From an uncultured delta proteobacterium (GTDB taxonomy: Bacteria > Desulfobacterota > Binatia > UBA9968), in NCBI GenBank assembly GCA_963755715.1, contig CAVWLW010000056.1:1-64000 (forward strand): 64,000 bases of DNA. Direction: 5' to 3'. Within the stretch, counting starts at the first letter, position 1; every line of letters begins with the position of its first letter. Positions 5,911-15,236 of this stretch are shown here, piece after piece. The notes under the pieces are model-generated. The model ran no database searches. It was not told where the DNA came from and was given only the letters and a program-made list of their open reading frames with translations. The position numbers and the translations under genes were made by a program.

Positions 5911-7443
5911 CTACCTGATCTTCATATCGGCAACGATGATTTCGTTGTTCGGATTGCCTTGCCAAATAATATTTCGCGCTAGGCCGTAAATTTCCGCGAG
6001 CGTGTAGAGCGGCACGACCGGGGCATCTTCCATCACGATACGCCCGGCCTGCTGCAGCACGGCAATCCGTTTTTTATGATCGCCGGTCTGCTGTTCTTCC
6101 TCGATGAGCTTATCCAGCTCAGGATTGCTGTAGCCGGTGCGCTTGGTTACGCCGGTGTGAAAGTATTGATCGTAAAAAGTATCAGCGTCATATGCGGAGC
6201 GGCCGGCATAGTAGAAGGGCAGCTTGCCGCCGTTGACGCCGTCGCGTCCCCAATAGATCGGATACTCTTGCGGCACGAGCTCTGCTTTGATGCCGCTCTC
6301 GGCGAGTTGCCGCGCGATCACCTGGCAGACTTCCTTGCCTTTGAGATGACGGTCGGGCGCCAGGTAAAGCTTAACCTCCAAACCGTTCGGGTAACCCGCT
6401 TTGGCGAGCAGCTCGCGCGCTTTTTTGGGATCGAACGGGTAGCGCTTGATCGCCGGGTCGTAGCCGATCATGTTCGAGCTTAACGGGCCGTTCAGCGCAT
6501 AGCCGTTTCCCTCGAAGATGTGTCTCAGAATGACCGTCGGGTCGACGGAATAATTGAATGCCTGGCGCACGAGCTTATTGTCGAACGGCTTGTGGGTCAC
6601 GTTCATCGTCAAAAAATACATGCGGTAACCCTGAACTTTTTCGACCCGCGTACGCGGGTTCTTAACCACCCGTTCGATTTCTTCGATCGGCAGGTTGCTG
6701 ATCGCATCCGCCTGACCGGCCAAGAGCCCGGCAACGCGCGCCGATTCTTCCTTGACCGTCTTAAACAGAACTTCTTTGATCTCCGGCTTGGCGCGCCAAT
6801 AATCGTCATTGCGCGCGAGCACTAAATTCCCCGCGCGCTGCCAACTGACGAGCTTGTAGGGCCCGGTGCCGATTTTATAATTGTCGAGCTCATTCGCGGT
6901 TTTTTCGACCGCCGATTGGCTGACGATGAAGCGATTATTCAAGCGTTCGAGCAGCACTGCGTTAGGCTGTTTGGTCGCGATGGTTACGGTGTAATCGTCG
7001 GGAGCCTCGATATTTGTCACTTCGTTGAAATTGGACGCTTGTAGACTCTTGCGGTCTTTGACCATGCGGTCGAAGGAGAACAACACGTCTTTGGACGTAA
7101 ACGGTGAGCCGTCGTGAAAACGAATATTCTTGCGCAAGCGAAAGAGCCATTTTCTCCCCTGAAACTCCCACGACTCGGCCAATACACCGACATATTCGGC
7201 GCGCGAATAGTCCATTTCGATCAACGGCTCGATGACGTGCTGCCAAATGCCGCTGATGCCGCCGCCGCTATAGGCGTAAGGGTGCAGCGAATCCAGGCCG
7301 ACGCCTTGAAACACGACGACGCGACTTTTCGAGGCGGCGAATGCCGTGCCCGTGCGGGCGGCGACGGTTAAACCGGTGAGCCCTAGAACAGCGGCGCTTT
7401 TCAAAAACTGACGACGATTTAACTGGGAATCATTCGCACCCAT
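5911..7443 (-). CDS. ABC transporter substrate-binding protein, family 5 (peptide/nickel-like), Tat signal
   Basis: RRQFLK Tat motif; LAESW, FHDGSPFTSKDVLFSF, IGTGPYK, VRQAFNYSVD. Confidence 0.9.
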   Translation of the reverse strand: MGANDSQLNRRQFLKSAAVLGLTGLTVAARTGTAFAASKSRVVVFQGVGLDSLHPYAYSGGGISGIWQHVIEPLIEMDYSRAEYVGVLAESWEFQGRKWLFRLRKNIRFHDGSPFTSKDVLFSFDRMVKDRKSLQASNFNEVTNIEAPDDYTVTIATKQPNAVLLERLNNRFIVSQSAVEKTANELDNYKIGTGPYKLVSWQRAGNLVLARNDDYWRAKPEIKEVLFKTVKEESARVAGLLAGQADAISNLPIEEIERVVKNPRTRVEKVQGYRMYFLTMNVTHKPFDNKLVRQAFNYSVDPTVILRHIFEGNGYALNGPLSSNMIGYDPAIKRYPFDPKKARELLAKAGYPNGLEVKLYLAPDRHLKGKEVCQVIARQLAESGIKAELVPQEYPIYWGRDGVNGGKLPFYYAGRSAYDADTFYDQYFHTGVTKRTGYSNPELDKLIEEEQQTGDHKKRIAVLQQAGRIVMEDAPVVPLYTLAEIYGLARNIIWQGNPNNEIIVADMKIR

Positions 7444-7547
7444 GGGCGACCTCCGTATTCGATCGAGGCGAGATGCGGTAAGGGATTGCTGTCCGCTTAT
7501 AGCTGCACCGCAGGATTATCGTCAAGGTGTTTTCGTTGTGTGGCAGA

Positions 7548-7569
7548 GGGCGCGATGAATCGCGCCCCT
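7548..7569 (-). repeat. REP palindrome, GTAG family (distant copy)
   Basis: gggcgcgatgaatcgcgcccct, same core as 607-630, next to the copD stop codon. Confidence 0.75.
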
Positions 7570-7570
7570 C

Positions 7571-9610
7571 CTAGTGCACGTGATCGTCGGGGGCCGGTGC
7601 GCGGGGTTTTTCTTTGCGCAGGAGATCGACCTGCGCCATTAATAATTCGCTCTTTCGCCATGCGTCATTTTCCGCGGGCAGCCAGCGCGCCCGAATGTAG
7701 CCTTGCTTGTCGATCAGATATTCCACGTGGGGTGTATTTAAGACGGGGTTTTCATCGTTGAACGATCGGGCGAAGAGTTTATAGGTCTCGGTGATTTCCC
7801 GGCCGCCTTCACTGACGATGGCTCCAGGTAACTTGTCGGCGACGTAGAACTGATCGATGAGGTTGGGGATGATGATAATCTCGACGCCGGAGGATTGTAA
7901 TTGGGGCAGAATACGGTCGAGTTGCTTCAACCGTTCTTCAGTGTCCTGCAGATTGAGCATGACAAGCAGCACGATCTTGGTGCCGCGATGATCCTTGAGC
8001 GTTTTCGGTTCTCCGGCATTGGTCCCATAGGCAAAATCCGGCGCGACGAGCCACGGGTTATCGTCGATGATCGGCGCCAGCGCGCGGGCTCGCTCGCCGC
8101 TCGAGAGCGCGCGCAGGTAATTGATCAGGTCCCAGCGTTCTTCTTCGCTCAGGCTCGCGCTGAATCCCGGCATGGCGGATGATTGCTTGACGCCATAACT
8201 CAACCACCAAAAAAGATCGCCAGCAGTGTGCGCGTTGGCGTGGGGCGCAGTGAGATCGGCGGCTTTTGGATTTAGCTCCTGCCCGGCGGGGCCATCGCCG
8301 TAGCCGAGGGCGCCGTGACAAGCGACGCAACCGGTTTCTTCATAAAGTCCTTTGCCGTTGGCGACGGAGATCGCGTGGTACGCGACGGACGGTCGCTTGT
8401 AGGTCGCGGGGTAGGCGTCGATCGAGACCGCGGTATGAACAGCGTCGCCGCCATAGCCGAGCGCGCCCAAGCCGATTACCATCATCATCATGCGCCGACG
8501 TCGGCGCATGAGACCGGCGATCAGCGCGACGGCGCCGACCGCCATCCAAACCATGCCGCGTTCGACTTCAGCGCGCGCTTTGGGCGCCTTGTCGAGAATG
8601 CTCCAATCCCAACGGACAGAAAGCGGCCAGTCGGGCTGGACGTGGCGCGCCGGCGGCGTCACGTTCATGTGGCCGACGATCAACAGGATGAATAAGCCGA
8701 GCACGACTTCGATCATCACATTGCGAGTTAGTTGCTTTAGGTGATCGGTAGCTTCTCTAAGCTGAGTTGAGGGTGCCTCGAAAATGTTCGCCTTGAGCCG
8801 CAAACGATTGACGGCGGCGACAGCCAGCAAGGGAATCAGGAGGGCGATTTTTAGGAGCAACAAATTGCCATAATGCGTGCCGAGCAACGCTGCGAAACCA
8901 CCGACCAAGTTCCAAGCGTTGTAGGCGCCTGTGGCGATAAGAACTGCGACGCTGAAAACGCCGATGCGGGAAAAGCGTCGCGTCGCTTCTCTCGCAATCG
9001 CTAGCGCTGTGCTGTCATGGTCCCGATCACATTCTCGGAGTAGAACCGCGAGAGGAACGAGTCCGCCCAACCATATGCCGCTCGCCAACAGATGAAGCGC
9101 GTCGGCTGAAATCTGCATCGCCAAGGCTGCGCCCTCTGCTGTCGCGGCATGGCCCGAGAGTGATATTGAAATTAGCAAACACGCGCTCAAGCCGAAGCCG
9201 CCGGCGAGAACAAAAAACGAATCGTACCTAAGGCGATTTATTTCGGCGTGAAATAGAAGCGCCGGGAGCAAACTGAGCAGAACCATGCGCCCCAACCAGA
9301 CTTTTCCAAATTGTGTATCAGTCAGTAGAGATACAGGGTCAAGCCGATCGAAGAATGTCTGAGCTGTGGAATCGCTGACATTGATGACTTGGATACAGAG
9401 ACTGAGAACAGCAGACACGGAAAGCACGAATATGCTCCAGATTACGATCTGTCGGTGAAATCTTAGGTTTAGGATATCTCGACCATCGATTCCGATGCCG
9501 GCTTTTTCAACGGCGGAGCGAGCAATGAGCAAATTAAAAGCGAAGCTGCCGGTCAGGACCACAGCAGCTACGATCTGAACAAAGCGAACGACAGCCGATA
9601 GCTCAGTCAT
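7571..9610 (-). CDS. copD: CopD copper-transport domain fused to a cytochrome c domain and a C-terminal redoxin-like domain
   Basis: LSGHAA, DALHLLASGIWLGGL, RFSRIG, THYG.LLLLKIAL, PPARH; heme motif CVACHG with PKAADLT, AGDLFWWLSYG, MPGF; C-terminal APDF..TLKDHRG..EYLIDKQGYIRARW. Confidence 0.85.
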   Translation of the reverse strand: MTELSAVVRFVQIVAAVVLTGSFAFNLLIARSAVEKAGIGIDGRDILNLRFHRQIVIWSIFVLSVSAVLSLCIQVINVSDSTAQTFFDRLDPVSLLTDTQFGKVWLGRMVLLSLLPALLFHAEINRLRYDSFFVLAGGFGLSACLLISISLSGHAATAEGAALAMQISADALHLLASGIWLGGLVPLAVLLRECDRDHDSTALAIAREATRRFSRIGVFSVAVLIATGAYNAWNLVGGFAALLGTHYGNLLLLKIALLIPLLAVAAVNRLRLKANIFEAPSTQLREATDHLKQLTRNVMIEVVLGLFILLIVGHMNVTPPARHVQPDWPLSVRWDWSILDKAPKARAEVERGMVWMAVGAVALIAGLMRRRRRMMMMVIGLGALGYGGDAVHTAVSIDAYPATYKRPSVAYHAISVANGKGLYEETGCVACHGALGYGDGPAGQELNPKAADLTAPHANAHTAGDLFWWLSYGVKQSSAMPGFSASLSEEERWDLINYLRALSSGERARALAPIIDDNPWLVAPDFAYGTNAGEPKTLKDHRGTKIVLLVMLNLQDTEERLKQLDRILPQLQSSGVEIIIIPNLIDQFYVADKLPGAIVSEGGREITETYKLFARSFNDENPVLNTPHVEYLIDKQGYIRARWLPAENDAWRKSELLMAQVDLLRKEKPRAPAPDDHVH

Positions 9611-9966
9611 TGCTTGACGCTGAAGGGAAGCTGATCTTGAACGACATGGCCGTCGACGGACAGGACGCGATATTTGATCAGATAGCGTCCGGCGGGCAGA
9701 GTTTTGACCGACGCAGAGAGTTGCTTGGGATCGTCCCCGTTCACCTCGGCTTTGCCTATATCGACAGTTTTACCTTCAGCATCGCTCACGGTGAATGAAG
9801 AGTAGCGGGGTTCTAATCGCTCGTTGAACCAGAGTTGAATCTTTGCGGGCGCGCGAAAAAGCACCGCGCGTTGCGCAGGCACTGACTTGACGAGATAGGC
9901 GTGCGCGGAGACGGTCGATGGCGCAAGCAGCAAAATGATCAGCAGCGCGGCGCACGATCTAGACAT
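9607..9966 (-). CDS. copC: Copper resistance protein CopC
   Basis: Signal peptide then AHAYLVKSVP, LWFNERLE, YRVLSVDGH; start at 9966 overlaps upstream stop (TAATG). Confidence 0.9.
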   Translation of the reverse strand: MSRSCAALLIILLLAPSTVSAHAYLVKSVPAQRAVLFRAPAKIQLWFNERLEPRYSSFTVSDAEGKTVDIGKAEVNGDDPKQLSASVKTLPAGRYLIKYRVLSVDGHVVQDQLPFSVKQ

Positions 9967-10394
9967 TAGCGGCGGGTGGTTTCCAGCGGGTAGCCACGCT
10001 TGACCCAGCCGGCGTAGCCTTCCGGCATCACGAAGATATTGCGATAGCCGCGATATTCCAAAAACACGGCACGATCCGCAACATCGTACGGTTTGCAGTC
10101 GCAATAAAGCACCACTCGGCCGGACTTGGGAATCTCGTTGAAGCGGTTCGCCATTTCAGCGAGCGGGATCGAGCGCGCTCCTGGAATACGTTTTTCTTGA
10201 AACTCTTTGGCCGGTCTGAGATCGATGAACGTCAGCTTTTCGCCGGCGTCTATCAGCTGTTTCACTTTTTCCACCGGCAGCGTATCGACGGTATCTTCCA
10301 CGCCATGGCCGGCCAGTGCGACGGCAGGAGGGAAGACACCGAGCAGCAGCAAAATGACGAGCAGCTGGCGTTTAATTCTCCGGCCGCTTTTCAT
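9966..10394 (-). CDS. Exported rhodanese-like domain protein
   Basis: Signal peptide; FIDLRP.KEFQEKRIPGARSIP, VVLYCDC, EGYAGW...GYP. Confidence 0.85.
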   Translation of the reverse strand: MKSGRRIKRQLLVILLLLGVFPPAVALAGHGVEDTVDTLPVEKVKQLIDAGEKLTFIDLRPAKEFQEKRIPGARSIPLAEMANRFNEIPKSGRVVLYCDCKPYDVADRAVFLEYRGYRNIFVMPEGYAGWVKRGYPLETTRR

Positions 10395-11778
10395 ATTTTA
10401 TTGTCACGTTTTTATTGTCCGCTGTCCATTCCACGGTGCCTTTGGTACCGGGAGTGTGGCGCATGATCCAGAAACCGCCGCCAGGATCAGACGAGCTGGC
10501 GAAAACCAGACCGTTCTCATGGACGAACACGTCGTCGGCGTGACCGGCGTCAGAATTCACGCGACGAAAAACCGGCGGAACAAAATGGCCAACCGATTTC
10601 GGCCGATAGGGATCGGAGATATCGATTGCCCAAAACCCAGAATTTTCCCAGGCGCTGAAGACGATGTTTCCTTTGACCATGCGCTCGATGTCGTGAATAC
10701 CGAAGCGCCGCCCCGGCCGGTCGGGCGGGCAGAAGCGATTGAGCGGCAAGCGGAAAGTCCCGATCTGCACCGGATTCGGCTCATGACGCACGTCGATCAC
10801 GTGCAGGTAGCCGAACGGGCATTGTTTCGCCGAAGTAATTTCGTCGGTGGCGAGGATGACGTCCGGTCTGCCGCCGTGCTGCGGCACGACGATGCCGATG
10901 CTGTGCGTGTTGCCTTCTTCGGGCGGCGACCATTTGATCTGGCTGATTTTGGTCGGCTTGCGAATGTCGCTGATGTCGAGAATGATCACGCCCTGATCGC
11001 GATAGGCGAGATAAGCGCGGTCCTTGTAGGTCGTCATGTCGTGGAGCGAAACCCAGATCTTCGGCAAGCCGTCGCGCAAGCCGCCATCGTCGATCCAGTT
11101 CTCGCCGAGCTTTTCTCCGCCCGCGGTGTGCTGCCCGGGAAACCACCAGCGCGAGATTTCCTTCGGGTTCGCCGGATCGTTGATGTCGACGATCATCAAG
11201 ATCGCGCCGAAGTAACCCTGCAGGGTGGTCGCAATGAATGCGAACTTGCCTTGCTTCGGATCTTCGTGGAGCCAAAAGCCGTGCACGCCGCGGTTGGGAG
11301 CCACGTCGGTTTTAAAAAAGCCGACTTCCTTGGGCTTGGCCGGGTCGGAGACGTCGAAAAGACGAATCCCCGACGTCCACGTCTTGACGTCATCGGAGCG
11401 CACGCCCTCCTGGTTCACGACGAGCAGATTGCCCAGGACGTCAATATACTGGCTTTGCACGCTCTTGTCGTTTTTAATTTGCGAAACTACTCGCGGCCGC
11501 GCCGGGTCGCTGACATCGACGACGCTGAAGCCTTGATAGTTCGAGATGTAAGCGTGCTTGCCGTCTTTGCTGACGCGAAACTCGGCGGCTTGGTCCCATC
11601 CTTCGAGATCGCTGTAGGAGAGGATCGTGAAATTCTCCAGCTCGCCGTAGCTGGGCTGGCGCTCCTTGGCGCCGCCGAGGATGTTCGGACTTTGTCCAAA
11701 CGCGCTGGGAACCGCCGTCGCAATCGACAGCAGCAAGAATCCAATGCGCACACCTCGTGAAAAAAGCGTTGAGGTCAT
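10372..11778 (-). CDS. Secreted LVIVD-repeat beta-propeller protein
   Basis: Signal peptide; repeats FSVVDVSDPARP, LFDVSDPAKP, LMIVDINDPANP, IILDISDIRKP, LHVIDVRHEPNP, FWAIDISDPYRP. Confidence 0.85.
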   Translation of the reverse strand: MTSTLFSRGVRIGFLLLSIATAVPSAFGQSPNILGGAKERQPSYGELENFTILSYSDLEGWDQAAEFRVSKDGKHAYISNYQGFSVVDVSDPARPRVVSQIKNDKSVQSQYIDVLGNLLVVNQEGVRSDDVKTWTSGIRLFDVSDPAKPKEVGFFKTDVAPNRGVHGFWLHEDPKQGKFAFIATTLQGYFGAILMIVDINDPANPKEISRWWFPGQHTAGGEKLGENWIDDGGLRDGLPKIWVSLHDMTTYKDRAYLAYRDQGVIILDISDIRKPTKISQIKWSPPEEGNTHSIGIVVPQHGGRPDVILATDEITSAKQCPFGYLHVIDVRHEPNPVQIGTFRLPLNRFCPPDRPGRRFGIHDIERMVKGNIVFSAWENSGFWAIDISDPYRPKSVGHFVPPVFRRVNSDAGHADDVFVHENGLVFASSSDPGGGFWIMRHTPGTKGTVEWTADNKNVTIKYEKRPEN

Positions 11779-11987
11779 AGAGCACGTCCTCCTGAAGATT
11801 GATCACTTGAGCGGGGTTGGGTCATATCGAGCAGATGCTCACATACCGCTGCTGGGTTTAGCTGTCAACTAAGAAAGCGGCGGAGGTGGCACCTGGGCGC
11901 GCGGCGATTGTTAAATCGGCAAATTAGCCAGTGCCTCGCGCCGACAAAAATGGTACTTTTAGCGCGATTTGAATGAAGGAGGCGGCC

Positions 11988-13157
11988 ATGGCCTATAAGA
12001 TACGGACTCGCGACGAACATTTCCTCAACGATGGAACGCCCAAACGAATCTTGGCGCTCGATGGCGGCGGTCTGCGCGGCATTCTCACGCTGTCGTATCT
12101 CGCAGAAATCGAGTCGGTGCTGCGTGAACGGCACGGCGGCTCTCAAGATTTCCGATTGCATCACTACTTCGACCTGATTGCCGGAACCTCGACGGGCTCG
12201 ATTATTGCCGCGGCCTTGGCGCGCGGCATGGCGGTGGCGGACATCATCAAAAAGTACAACGACCTCGGTCAGCGGGTATTTCAAAAAAGCTGGTTGCGCC
12301 AAGGCTACGTCCGGGCGTTTTATGACGAGGCGGGGCTGATCAAAGAACTGAAGGATGTCTACGGCGCCGATACGACGATGGGCGATCCGTCGCTGCAGAC
12401 CGGTTTGTTGGTGATCACCAAGCGGCTCGATAGCGGGAGTGCGTGGCCGATCTCGAACAATCCGCGCGGCCGCTATTTCGGCGTGCGGCCGAACCAGAGC
12501 GTCGTGGCTAATTCCCAATATCCGTTGTGGCAAGTGGTGCGGGCTTCCACGGCGGCGCCGCGCTATTTCGATCCGGAAAGAATCGTGATCGCCCAGGGCA
12601 GCGGCGAACAGAAATCGGTGCAAGGCGAGTTCGTCGACGGCGGCGTCAGCCCGTTCAACAACCCCGCGCTCCAGGCCGTGATGTATGCGACTTTCGATGG
12701 CTACCGTATCGGGTGGTCGACGGGCGCCGACAAGCTGATGGTGGTTTCAATCGGCACCGGCAGCCGCGACCCGAAAACGGCGCCGGCTAGTCTAGCGATG
12801 GAAAATGCGTTGAAGGCTGTGATTTCTGTGATGGACGACTGCGCCGATCTGATGGAAATCGTGCTCCAATGGATGTCGAACAGTCACACCGCTCGCGTGA
12901 TCGATCGCGAGATGGGTGATCTGCGCCATGATTCGATCGCGCCGGCGCCACTGATTAATTATCTGCGTTACAATATCACTCTGAGCAAAGAATCATTGAC
13001 CCCTCTCGGCATCGATTTGCCGGACGCCAAATTCGAAAGCCTGAGCGCCATGGACGATCCCGCCAACATGCCAACGTTGCAAGATATCGGCGCGCGGGCG
13101 GCAAGGCAGCAAGTCCGCGGCGAGGATTTTTCGTCGAATTTCGATCTCACAAATTAG
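11988..13157 (+). CDS. Patatin-like phospholipase
   Basis: LALDGGGLRG oxyanion motif, GTSTG nucleophile elbow, ASTAAP, FVDGG catalytic Asp; AGGAGG RBS. Confidence 0.92.
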   Translation: MAYKIRTRDEHFLNDGTPKRILALDGGGLRGILTLSYLAEIESVLRERHGGSQDFRLHHYFDLIAGTSTGSIIAAALARGMAVADIIKKYNDLGQRVFQKSWLRQGYVRAFYDEAGLIKELKDVYGADTTMGDPSLQTGLLVITKRLDSGSAWPISNNPRGRYFGVRPNQSVVANSQYPLWQVVRASTAAPRYFDPERIVIAQGSGEQKSVQGEFVDGGVSPFNNPALQAVMYATFDGYRIGWSTGADKLMVVSIGTGSRDPKTAPASLAMENALKAVISVMDDCADLMEIVLQWMSNSHTARVIDREMGDLRHDSIAPAPLINYLRYNITLSKESLTPLGIDLPDAKFESLSAMDDPANMPTLQDIGARAARQQVRGEDFSSNFDLTN

Positions 13158-13238
13158 GCCCTTCAGGTGGATTAGGGGCCAGCATTTTGCGGCGTTGTTA
13201 AATGCCCAGGCCGAAGCCAAGCCGATGAGGTGCAGATC

Positions 13239-15236
13239 ATGAAAAGCGTTTTTATCGTTCGTCCATTCGGCACAAAAAGCGGCATCAATTTTGATCAGGT
13301 TGAAGAAGATCTCATTCGCCCGGCAATGGCGCAGGCCAACTTGACTGGCGGCACCACCGTCGAATTCATACAACAAGGCAACATTCGAGCCGACATGTTC
13401 GAGCAATTGCTTGTCGCCGATCTGGTGATTGCCGACATCTCGATCCACAATGCCAATGCATTTTACGAACTAGGCATCCGTCACGCGTTGCGCGATAAAC
13501 GGACGTTTCTTATCAAATCCAAACAAGCTACGCCGGGGGAACGTGATGCAAAGGATACTGATGTGCCGTTCGATCTGAAAACCGACCGTTATCTTGCCTA
13601 CGATCAAAATCAACTTGGTGGGGCTGTGGAGATTCTTGCCGCGGCGCTCAAACTCACTATGGATGCTCAAAGAGCCGACAGCCCGATTTATCAATTGCTG
13701 CCCGCGTTGAAGCCTGCTGATCCGGAGGACGTGCTAGTGGTGCCGCTCGACTTTAGCGAAGAGGTCGAACGCGTCGAAGCGGCGACAAATTGCGGTGATC
13801 TGCAATTGTTGGCCGCCGAGGTCGACGGCTTCGCCTGGCGAGTCGCCGGCTTGCGCATGATCGGCCACGCGCAGTTTCGCTTGAAGGACTGGACGGGCGC
13901 CAAGGTCACTTGGATCGCCGTCCGCGAGTATGGCGACATGGACGTTGAAGCCAACACGATGCTCGGGACGATCTTTCAACGCCTCGGCGATCTGGTCAGC
14001 TCGGATCAAGCCGTCGAGCGGGCGCTTCAGAACAATGGGATTTCTGCGAGCGGACGCGCCGAGATTCGTACGTTGATGGGACGAAACGCCAAAAATAGAT
14101 GGGAGCAGAGTTGGGCAAATTTGACGACAGTTGACGCGGCGCAAAAGGCGGCTCTGGCCTCGCAGTATTTGGAGAATTCTTTCGACCTTTGCCGCGCGGG
14201 TTTTATCGAAGACCGGAATCATTTTTACTCGGGCCTTAATGCGTTAGCGATGGTCACCATGCTGACAGAGCTGGCGCAGGCGCAGCCGCGGGGCTGGGAA
14301 GATAGCTTCGATACTGGAGAGGAGGCCGCGCAAAAGTTGCAAAAGCTCAAAGAATTGCGCAACGACCTCGCCGCGGGTGTGCGGCTGGCGATCGAGTCCA
14401 AGCAAACGGCCTTGCAACGCAGCGGCAAAAGCGACGTGTGGGTCGATATCAGCACCGCGGATCTCATTTGTTTGACCTCCACGCGACCGAATCGGGTCGC
14501 ACAGTCCTACAAGAAGGCGCTCACCGTCGCTTCGGATCAAGCGCGCGACGCCGTCCGGAGACAACTGCTGCTCTACCAGCGTCTCGGGATACTAAAGGAG
14601 AATATTCAAGCTGGCCTCGAAAGCATCGCGCCGGTGGCGGCGCAGGTCCAGGAAGCGCCGCCGCGGGTGATTTTGTTTACTGGCCACCGGATCGACGCGC
14701 CTGCTCGCCCGACGCCGCGCTTTCCGGCCGTCAAGGAAGAGCAGGCGCGCGCGATGATCCGCGATGCAGTCACGAACATCAAGGCCAAAACTGATGGCAA
14801 GCTACTGGGCATCTCCGGCGGCGCCGCCGGCGGCGATATTTTGTTTCACGAAGTCTGCGAAGAATTGAACATCCCGAGCCAAATGTATCTGGTGCTGCCG
14901 AGAAACGATTACATCAAGGCTTCGGTGGCGGACAGCGGGCCGGGTTGGGTGGAACGCTTCAATCGACTCTACGAAAAGCTCAAAGCCAAAGTCTTGTCCG
15001 ATTCAGATCGCTTGCCGCGCTGGTTGCGTGCTAAAAAAGACTACAGCATCTGGCAGCGTTCCAACCTCTGGATGCTGCATAATGCACTTTACATTTCGCA
15101 GGAGCATCTTACGCTGATGGCTTTGTGGAACGGCAGCAGCGGCGACGGTCCCGGCGGCACCGAGGATATGGTGAAGCGGGCGGTGGACCGTGGCGCCACT
15201 TTTATTCATCTCGATACCCGCAAACTGATCGAATAA
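13239..15236 (+). CDS. Multidomain protein: nucleoside deoxyribosyltransferase/deoxyribohydrolase-like (DUF4071-associated) N-terminus, TPR-like helical region, C-terminal SLOG-like domain
   Basis: VFIVRPFG, ADLVIADISIHNANAFYELGIRHALR, VPFD; helical middle with YSGLNALAM; VILFTGHRID, GISGGAAGGDILFHE, ALWNG..GDGPGGTEDMV. Confidence 0.75.
   Translation: MKSVFIVRPFGTKSGINFDQVEEDLIRPAMAQANLTGGTTVEFIQQGNIRADMFEQLLVADLVIADISIHNANAFYELGIRHALRDKRTFLIKSKQATPGERDAKDTDVPFDLKTDRYLAYDQNQLGGAVEILAAALKLTMDAQRADSPIYQLLPALKPADPEDVLVVPLDFSEEVERVEAATNCGDLQLLAAEVDGFAWRVAGLRMIGHAQFRLKDWTGAKVTWIAVREYGDMDVEANTMLGTIFQRLGDLVSSDQAVERALQNNGISASGRAEIRTLMGRNAKNRWEQSWANLTTVDAAQKAALASQYLENSFDLCRAGFIEDRNHFYSGLNALAMVTMLTELAQAQPRGWEDSFDTGEEAAQKLQKLKELRNDLAAGVRLAIESKQTALQRSGKSDVWVDISTADLICLTSTRPNRVAQSYKKALTVASDQARDAVRRQLLLYQRLGILKENIQAGLESIAPVAAQVQEAPPRVILFTGHRIDAPARPTPRFPAVKEEQARAMIRDAVTNIKAKTDGKLLGISGGAAGGDILFHEVCEELNIPSQMYLVLPRNDYIKASVADSGPGWVERFNRLYEKLKAKVLSDSDRLPRWLRAKKDYSIWQRSNLWMLHNALYISQEHLTLMALWNGSSGDGPGGTEDMVKRAVDRGATFIHLDTRKLIE

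Follow-up and report, generated by a model that had tools for sequence, protein, structure and literature searches.

What task could unite an exported beta-propeller, a rhodanese-like protein and two proteins of copper handling in a single operon? The question is raised by a locus of an uncultured delta proteobacterium of the class Binatia, which lies in contig CAVWLW010000056.1 (assembly GCA_963755715.1); the first 64,000 nucleotides of this contig were analysed and are called the window below. The listing of open reading frames (ORFs) shows four of them on the minus strand between positions 7571 and 11778, encoding in this order an LVIVD beta-propeller (10372..11778, 468 residues), a single-domain rhodanese-like protein (9966..10394, 142 residues), CopC (9607..9966, 119 residues from the ATG within TAATG, with an alternative longer TTG start at 10104) and a CopD-cytochrome c-thioredoxin-fold fusion (7571..9610, 679 residues). 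As described in an initial annotation, the reading frames overlap at all three junctions: by 23 nt between the propeller and rhodanese-like genes (10372-10394, where the rhodanese-like start precedes the propeller stop), by 1 nt (TAATG) between the rhodanese-like gene and copC, and by 4 nt (ATGA) between copC and the fusion gene. Export of the first three proteins was judged by eye from their N-terminal hydrophobic leaders, and the fourth has about ten hydrophobic segments according to hydropathy. The initial annotation regarded the locus as a copper-dependent enzyme system acting on sulfur compounds. We favour, tentatively and with considerable doubt, a different reading, in which these proteins would form a periplasmic module for the capture, reduction and delivery of copper, serving an uncharacterised metallo-propeller.

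The core of the unit is the pair of propeller and rhodanese-like genes, which is obligate, and CopC with the CopD fusion constitutes a separable module that is placed directly after this pair in about two thirds of the loci. Loci were collected by a search of genome records starting from an alignment of the closer propellers (78 loci) and by a metagenome search with the rhodanese-like protein (80 loci). When the propeller is at least 60% identical to that of the window, the genome loci have a rhodanese-like gene following it in 16 of 17 informative cases; the complete set of CopC and CopD fusion comes next in 10 of the 14 genome loci that are informative on this point. Among the metagenome loci the propeller lies directly upstream of the rhodanese-like gene in 68 of 76 informative cases and copC directly downstream of it in 48 of 77. 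Further along, copD was found in 33 of 51 loci and the cytochrome in 15 of 27; within 3.5 kb, CopD is lacking in 18 of the 51 informative propeller/rhodanese loci. The synteny of all four genes that had been expected from the initial annotation therefore holds for the first two, CopCD being optional. Identical flanks were found with and without the CopCD insertion (L006 versus L007; L011 and L024 versus L023 and L002), and the unit recurs in at least three unrelated flanking contexts, in keeping with a conserved and self-contained unit.

Most of these loci are from uncultured Binatia-type soil bacteria, as judged from database record titles. Among 401 genomes of the window's class, a tally that includes one genome flagged as unpublished (G640), the fusion was found in 19, the long propeller (E <= 1e-90) in 13 and both in 11; in addition to these 11, genome G672 has a frameshifted propeller copy beside the fusion. 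In a phylum-wide sample the fusion was present in one of 301 genomes, namely that of the window itself. Propeller copies broken by frameshifts or stops, with intact downstream genes, were seen in G672 and G626 (L126:5301-6684, L122 and L124), and could represent either assembly errors or gene decay. At four other loci (L004:3166-3285, L147, L151 and L152) copD is absent and the rhodanese-like gene is followed by copC alone or by a remnant of it, which suggests secondary loss of the CopCD module at loci of this type.

The propeller is a clear member of the LVIVD family (PF08309; 68.8 bits versus a cut-off of 20.2), of which 3793 proteins were found at E <= 0.001 among 7999 candidates scored. 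Among the 120 homologues listed the name is 'hypothetical protein' wherever a source gives one, and the protein atlas labels are LVIVD or 'hypothetical' only. The AlphaFold2 (AF2) model, with a mean predicted local distance difference test (pLDDT) score of 88.2, is a seven-bladed propeller, and it superimposes on the seven-bladed WD40 protein 3ow8_A over 286 aligned residues (VIA Z 32.1, root-mean-square deviation 2.0). By sequence, the sole solved relative is Sb-PTE (5hrm, 5ioj), the haloalkylphosphorus hydrolase/phosphotriesterase of Sphingobium sp. TCM1, which is likewise a seven-bladed LVIVD-type propeller; the E-value is 2.3e-7 with phmmer and 3.7e-19 with the family profile. Foldseek also gives 5hrm (E 1.3e-16, 17% identity), followed by the next match at 1.3e-9. 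Beyond rank 2 of Foldseek, and with VIA, the matches are generic WD40 propellers (Z about 30-32); such structure searches do not separate thiocyanate dehydrogenase (TcDH), NosZ, SBP56 and Sb-PTE, and TcDH is not among the matches listed. A search of 177,635 PDB sequences with the family profile at E <= 1 identified the two Sb-PTE entries and two unrelated weak matches, and no TcDH chain. The match to the SBP56/methanethiol oxidase family (PF05694) remains at 19.5 bits, below the cut-off of 34, so that the sulfur chemistry ascribed to the propeller in the initial annotation found no counterpart in its homologies. Longer fused forms are limited to distant multidomain LVIVD surface proteins (21-36% identity), none of which is an informative fusion. 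Complex prediction for the propeller with the rhodanese-like protein, run without controls, gave a score of 0.01 against a mark of 0.32.

Does the propeller contain a conserved active site? Residue conservation was evaluated in 105 homologues (15 of the 120 were dropped, being shorter than 360 residues), comprising 87 of a long, exported form and 18 of a short form without a leader. Five His residues had been noted in the initial annotation, four of which are near-invariant: H166 (85/87 in the long form, 18/18 in the short form), H246 (87/87, 18/18), H292 (87/87, 18/18) and H362 (85/87, 18/18). The fifth, H413 in the motif AGHADD, is confined to the long form (72/87 versus 0/18). Two acidic residues, E313 (86/87, 18/18) and D416 (81/87, 18/18), are conserved to a similar extent, and H171 (79/87), H326 (80/87) and C320 (86/87) are specific to the long form, as is H413. 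In the AF2 model the conserved His residues lie in successive blades, each following a long loop at the start of a strand, a pattern that fits a predicted site in the hub of the propeller.

In a profile alignment H166, H292 and E313 coincide with a His, a His and a Glu at 5hrm chain positions 171, 302 and 320, which with an offset of +87 correspond to residues 258, 389 and 407 of the 5ioj numbering. We take His258, His389 and Glu407 to be ligands of the binuclear manganese centre of Sb-PTE, presumably together with His317 and His475 as further ligands and Glu201 as the bridging carboxylate. C320 and a second Cys form a pair that aligns with a Cys pair of Sb-PTE; the region around H362 lies outside the HMMER alignment to this enzyme. 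These alignments support the presence in the propeller of a conserved His/Glu/Asp set that would be homologous to a known metal centre. Compared with Sb-PTE, the long form adds H171, H326 and H413, and there is no sign of phosphotriesterase activity.

The second member of the obligate pair is a periplasmic rhodanese-like protein (PF00581; 55.6 bits versus a cut-off of 22.2), for which the best NCBIfam match is the rhodanese_LYCAU (seleno)protein family (NF041203; 49.5 bits, far below the equivalog cut-off of 115). In an alignment of 16 sequences, 13 of them linked to propellers and three being paralogues from a propeller-less locus, C98-x-C100 is invariant (16/16), in agreement with the YCDC loop described before. 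A28-(G/A)29-H30 is equally invariant (16/16), and since it is situated at the predicted cleavage site of the leader the mature protein would start with X-His. The active-site loop reads C98-D-C100-K-P-Y-D, and its residue at +6 is acidic in the 13 propeller-linked sequences and variable in the three paralogues. Canonical rhodaneses have a six-residue loop in which the backbone and basic groups cradle the persulfide, and compared with this motif the loop of the present family appears to lack the basic cradle of a sulfurtransferase.

A paralogue in the same genome (L141:12329-12808, contig C75 at about 62.3-62.8 kb; 39% identity) has an in-frame TGA in place of the first Cys. If TGA specifies selenocysteine this sequence reads L-Y-U-A-C, and the paralogue is probably a selenoprotein. 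SelB scores above its cut-off in the same genome; a small GU-loop hairpin 20 nt past the TGA is not significant. The surrounding region of contig C75 (L141:3900-12500) is a second copper locus, with a CopC (Pfam) and a 286-residue ORF matching the CopD of the window (E 1.9e-23) in addition to the UxC paralogue; by eye, two Sco-type CxxxC proteins and a VKOR/thioredoxin-like protein were also assigned there. The initial annotation had given the rhodanese the handling of sulfane sulfur, a role that finds no support in an acidic CxC loop that does not look like an anion-binding cradle. Because of the CxC motif, the acidic loop, the X-His terminus and the UxC paralogue in a second copper locus, our analysis instead suggests that the protein would be involved in redox chemistry or copper handling rather than in sulfane-sulfur transfer.

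CopC is identified by Pfam (82.9 bits versus 23.3) and less strictly by the NCBIfam family copper_CopC (82.9 bits, below the equivalog cut-off of 95). Its predicted mature N-terminus is a His (…VSA|HAYLV), a D-G-H motif (…SVDGHVV) lies near the C-terminus, and the mature part contains no Met, so by inspection it would be of the Cu(II)-only type. The fusion protein starts with a CopD membrane domain of about ten hydrophobic segments (residues 1 to about 400; 8411..9610), scoring 85.3 bits in Pfam (cut-off 32.1) and 185.2 bits for NCBIfam copper_CopD, just under the cut-off of 195. It is followed by a class I c-type cytochrome domain (residues about 405-510; 8081..8398; Cytochrom_C, PF00034, 45 bits versus 21.3), with the CxxCH motif encoded at 8315-8329, and by a thioredoxin-fold domain devoid of Cys (residues about 516-666; 7574..8065) with the tail …APAPDDHVH. 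Alignment of 14 fusion members confirmed the composition that had been read from the sequence earlier: C428, C431 and H432 of the CxxCH motif, the axial Met480 and the C-terminal H677-x-H679 are invariant (14/14), and the redoxin domain, the peroxidatic position included, is free of Cys in all sequences of two alignments (14/14 and 13/13). In CopD itself H154, H173 and H323 are invariant (14/14) and predicted to face the periplasm. An RRRRR loop at residues 370-374 is predicted to lie in the cytoplasm. The topology suggested by hydropathy and the positive-inside rule has ten membrane segments, with the RRRRR loop inside and both the cytochrome and the thioredoxin fold outside.

The C-terminal domain of the fusion matches AhpC-TSA below the cut-off (21.3 bits versus 26). 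Its AF2 model (pLDDT 77) retrieves folds of the Prx, ResA and TlpA types with Foldseek, among them the TlpA-ScoI complex 4txo, at E-values of about 1e-6 that do not separate these types, and alignments reveal a His three residues ahead of a YLID motif. It thus shares its general fold with chaperone/reductant pairs of the Sco/TlpA type, but being Cys-less it could perform neither thiol-disulfide exchange nor copper binding of the Sco-type Cys2His kind. For the fusion, 753 relatives were found at E <= 0.001 among 3646 candidates, and of the 120 listed 115 have both the CopD and the cytochrome c Pfam domains, the other five being short fragments.

To which partner does the cytochrome belong? Four propeller-less loci (L127, L128, L129 and L131) contain the CopD fusion in another cluster. 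The most complete is L127 (4089-14971), with, in order, genes for exported Amidohydro_3 proteins, a rhodanese-like protein, CopC, a second rhodanese-like protein, the CopD fusion, an SBP_bac_6 solute-binding protein, another exported Amidohydro_3 protein and a third member of the rhodanese-like family; the three paralogous rhodanese-like genes flank CopC and CopD. The other three loci have subsets of this gene set, and in all four an Amidohydro_3 gene is located downstream of the fusion and is followed by a rhodanese-like gene. A metallohydrolase-type exported enzyme, followed by a CxC rhodanese-like protein and accompanied by CopC and the CopD-cytochrome, is therefore a pattern that occurs with two unrelated scaffolds. 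Because the fusion recurs in clusters without a propeller, the cytochrome belongs with CopD and not with the propeller. Its proposed function as electron sink of the propeller finds no support in this, nor in the propeller/rhodanese loci mentioned above that have no CopD within 3.5 kb.

More distant propellers have other neighbours. The alphaproteobacterial relatives (57-59% identity) lack both rhodanese-like and cop genes, and in these loci a His-rich protein of 133-161 residues with HLHGYD and GHxHGG motifs follows the propeller (L020:7346-10291, L017:7495-7923 and L027:7300-7785). Downstream of it are genes for a membrane protein of 511 residues that belongs to no known family and is predicted to start with a His in its mature form, and then for a periplasmic metallo-beta-lactamase. 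A relative with 48% identity is located between an Amidohydro_3 gene and CusC/CusB, and another with 44% identity (L026) follows a MerR-type regulator. Proximity of propeller relatives to copper or heavy-metal genes was thus seen in several lineages. The source genome itself also has five short-form LVIVD paralogues (31-37% identity; L085-L089, on contigs C52, C36, C69, C55 and C9), of which the one on C69 is split by an in-frame TAA.

In the mechanism that we envisage, CopC, with an N-terminal His and no Met, would capture Cu(II), the cytochrome c fused to CopD would reduce it to Cu(I) at the periplasmic face, and CopD would then either take Cu(I) inward or pass it on. Two candidates for redox or chaperone carriers are the thioredoxin fold, Cys-less and with an HxH tail, and the rhodanese-like protein with its X-His and CxC motifs. 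The propeller, exported by the Sec pathway, would fold in the periplasm, receive its metal there and act as an enzyme, at a hub site formed by H166, H246, H292, H362, E313 and D416 that may derive from the binuclear centre of Sb-PTE.

There are partial precedents for such an arrangement. In the TcDH cluster of Thioalkalivibrio, as described in PMC5744179, a periplasmic copper propeller enzyme is encoded beside copCD and fccAB, and the authors proposed CopCD as the supplier of copper. The likeness consists of a metallo-propeller next to copC/copD with a cytochrome nearby. In the window, however, the cytochrome is fused to CopD instead of being a flavocytochrome of its own, a rhodanese-like partner with CxC is found, thiocyanate and sulfur genes are absent from the operon, and no sequence relation to TcDH could be detected. 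The earlier notion of a copper-propeller enzyme served by copCD therefore has a precedent in gene arrangement but not in protein homology. YcnJ of Bacillus subtilis is a CopC-CopD-YtkA fusion importer whose C-terminal extracytoplasmic, chaperone-like domain aids the loading of a cuproenzyme, and which depends both on CopC binding Cu(II) and on a site in CopD, according to PMC13344008. CopC and CopD with an extra extracytoplasmic C-terminal domain are common to both systems; in the window CopC is a separate gene, CopD is extended by cytochrome c and by an HxH-tailed thioredoxin fold without Cys instead of by YtkA, and the presumed client is a propeller and not a haem-copper oxidase.

Several observations weigh against copper delivery to the propeller, or against the hub site on which it depends. 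About one third of the propeller/rhodanese pairs are without CopCD, and where the propeller is absent CopCD and the rhodanese-like genes are found together with an exported protein of the Amidohydro_3 type, from a superfamily that is not known to use copper. We presume Sb-PTE, the only relative to have been characterised, to be a manganese hydrolase. The match of H246 to Sb-PTE His317 is found in a by-eye alignment only, a PDB sequence search with the C-terminal 137 residues of the propeller gave chance matches only and left H362 and D416 unaligned to Sb-PTE, and the counterpart of the bridging Glu201 falls at V107/Q108 (V in 60/87 and Q in 56/87 of the long form, respectively). The short-form, cytoplasmic paralogues share the hub residues of the long form and adjoin large subunits of molybdenum hydroxylases in 10 loci, not copper genes. 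Finally, the cupredoxin and Cu-oxidase Pfam matches of the alphaproteobacterial His-rich protein are below cut-off, and the MerR-type regulator of L026 scores as mercury-type.

Could the propeller then be a non-copper binuclear hydrolase? It would in that case resemble Sb-PTE in using Mn, Zn or Fe, and act on a periplasmic ester or amide, with a redox or product-related role for the rhodanese-like protein and with CopCD as a general importer of copper that is no more than a frequent neighbour. The position of Sb-PTE as the only solved relative agrees with this, as do the hub residues of short forms in the catabolic clusters with molybdenum hydroxylases, the replacement of the propeller by Amidohydro_3 in the paralogous cluster, the third of the loci without CopCD, and eight genomes of the class that have the fusion and gave no long propeller at the threshold of E <= 1e-90 (one of these, G672, has a frameshifted copy). 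However, CopCD, when present, always comes directly after the rhodanese-like gene with overlapping frames, and the rhodanese-like family is tied to loci with CopC, CopD and Sco-type proteins even in the absence of a propeller. Moreover, the long form has gained additional His residues and does not keep the bridging carboxylate of Sb-PTE. Proteins that are exported by Sec and fold in the periplasm also tend to acquire Cu or Zn and not Mn. We consider a non-copper hydrolase unlikely on balance, though a serious competitor.

Alternatively, the genes could form a cop/pco-type operon for the tolerance or sequestration of copper. The propeller would then be a periplasmic part that binds or oxidises copper, the CxC protein would buffer Cu(I), and CopCD would move the metal. 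PMC7558416 describes CopA and CopB as classically accompanied by CopC and CopD, propeller relatives occur beside CusC/CusB and beside the MerR-family metal regulator, and His, Asp and Glu are numerous in the proteins. As in copABCD and pcoABCDE, adjacent homologues of CopC and CopD are found in an operon with periplasmic partners, but those partners differ: the operon lacks the multicopper oxidase CopA, CopB and a two-component regulator. Neither a copper-sensing regulator nor a multicopper oxidase or P-type ATPase is present in the operon or its immediate flanks, and the CopC is Met-free and so lacks a Met-rich Cu(I) site. In addition, CopD-type proteins are generally implicated in import (PMC7558416, PMC13344008), and the predicted hub site has the appearance of a discrete, enzyme-like centre instead of a Met/His-rich sponge. 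Tolerance as the function of this operon seems improbable to us.

The weakest explanation is that of the initial annotation, in which a copper propeller oxidises thiocyanate or a thiol, the cytochrome takes the electrons and the rhodanese carries sulfane sulfur; in spite of the analogy to the TcDH cluster with its copCD and cytochrome-type acceptor (PMC5744179), the rhodanese domain and the weak SBP56 match, it is very improbable given that no TcDH chain appeared in the PDB profile search, that the acidic loop, invariant second Cys and Sec-containing paralogue of the rhodanese-like protein point to redox or metal chemistry, that the cytochrome is part of CopD even without a propeller and is absent from a third of the propeller loci, and that no sulfur-oxidation genes are nearby.

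CopC, CopD, cytochrome c and rhodanese domains are each already known singly. What seems to be new is that an Sb-PTE-like propeller is paired with a rhodanese-like protein of the CxC type, that CopD is fused to cytochrome c and a Cys-less thioredoxin fold, and that a rhodanese-like family recurs in copper loci. In the literature search, no paper was found that, by its title or the start of its abstract, pointed to a combination of LVIVD with copper or of CopD with cytochrome and rhodanese. The copper supply of periplasmic enzymes and the true roles of CopC and CopD are still open questions (PMC13344008, PMC7558416). With a cytochrome c attached, CopD could have its own Cu(II) reductase built in, a CxC/UxC rhodanese-like protein as a dedicated partner would broaden the known roles of rhodanese domains, and the propellers represent a large exported protein family with a conserved predicted metal centre, named at most as hypothetical. 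If the propeller is indeed a cuproenzyme, the hub of a propeller would have been put to use for copper chemistry a second time, independently of the first. A bolder extension of copper delivery, which we regard as doubtful, is that the X-His and CxC/UxC rhodanese-like proteins might be a new class of periplasmic copper reductases or chaperones. Together with the CopD-borne cytochrome c as cupric reductase, they would then build the copper centre of a new cuproenzyme family on an Sb-PTE-type propeller scaffold, and a parallel system might serve the exported amidohydrolase scaffold.

A stable stem-loop without a U-tract (7546..7570, minus strand) directly follows the stop codon of the fusion gene; folding of 7530-7580 gives -21.4 kcal/mol with a z of -3.5. 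This stem-loop, which is absent from the output of the terminator scan, may mark the end of the operon. The next gene past the stop codon, encoding an SBP_bac_5 protein with a twin-arginine translocation (Tat) signal, starts 127 nt further on, and given this distance and the stem-loop the operon would comprise the four genes only. Promoter and terminator scans of the region performed no better than on shuffled sequences, and Rfam gave no match in 7000-12500. Contigs from RNA libraries of three studies cover small pieces only (10896-11142, 9857-10087 and parts of 7527-8404), of which 9857-10087 spans the rhodanese/copC junction; as DNA carry-over is possible, they are no proof of transcription.

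The neighbouring genes, which encode a patatin, a TPR-S protein and a DUF255 thioredoxin-domain protein (Pfam), appear unrelated to the operon. Divergent from it, positions 11973-15236 of the window contain a gene for a patatin-like phospholipase and then one for a 668-residue TPR-S protein with an unassigned C-terminal domain. These two may constitute a conflict-system pair, and synteny of the TPR-S gene (family c9) extends to related genomes.

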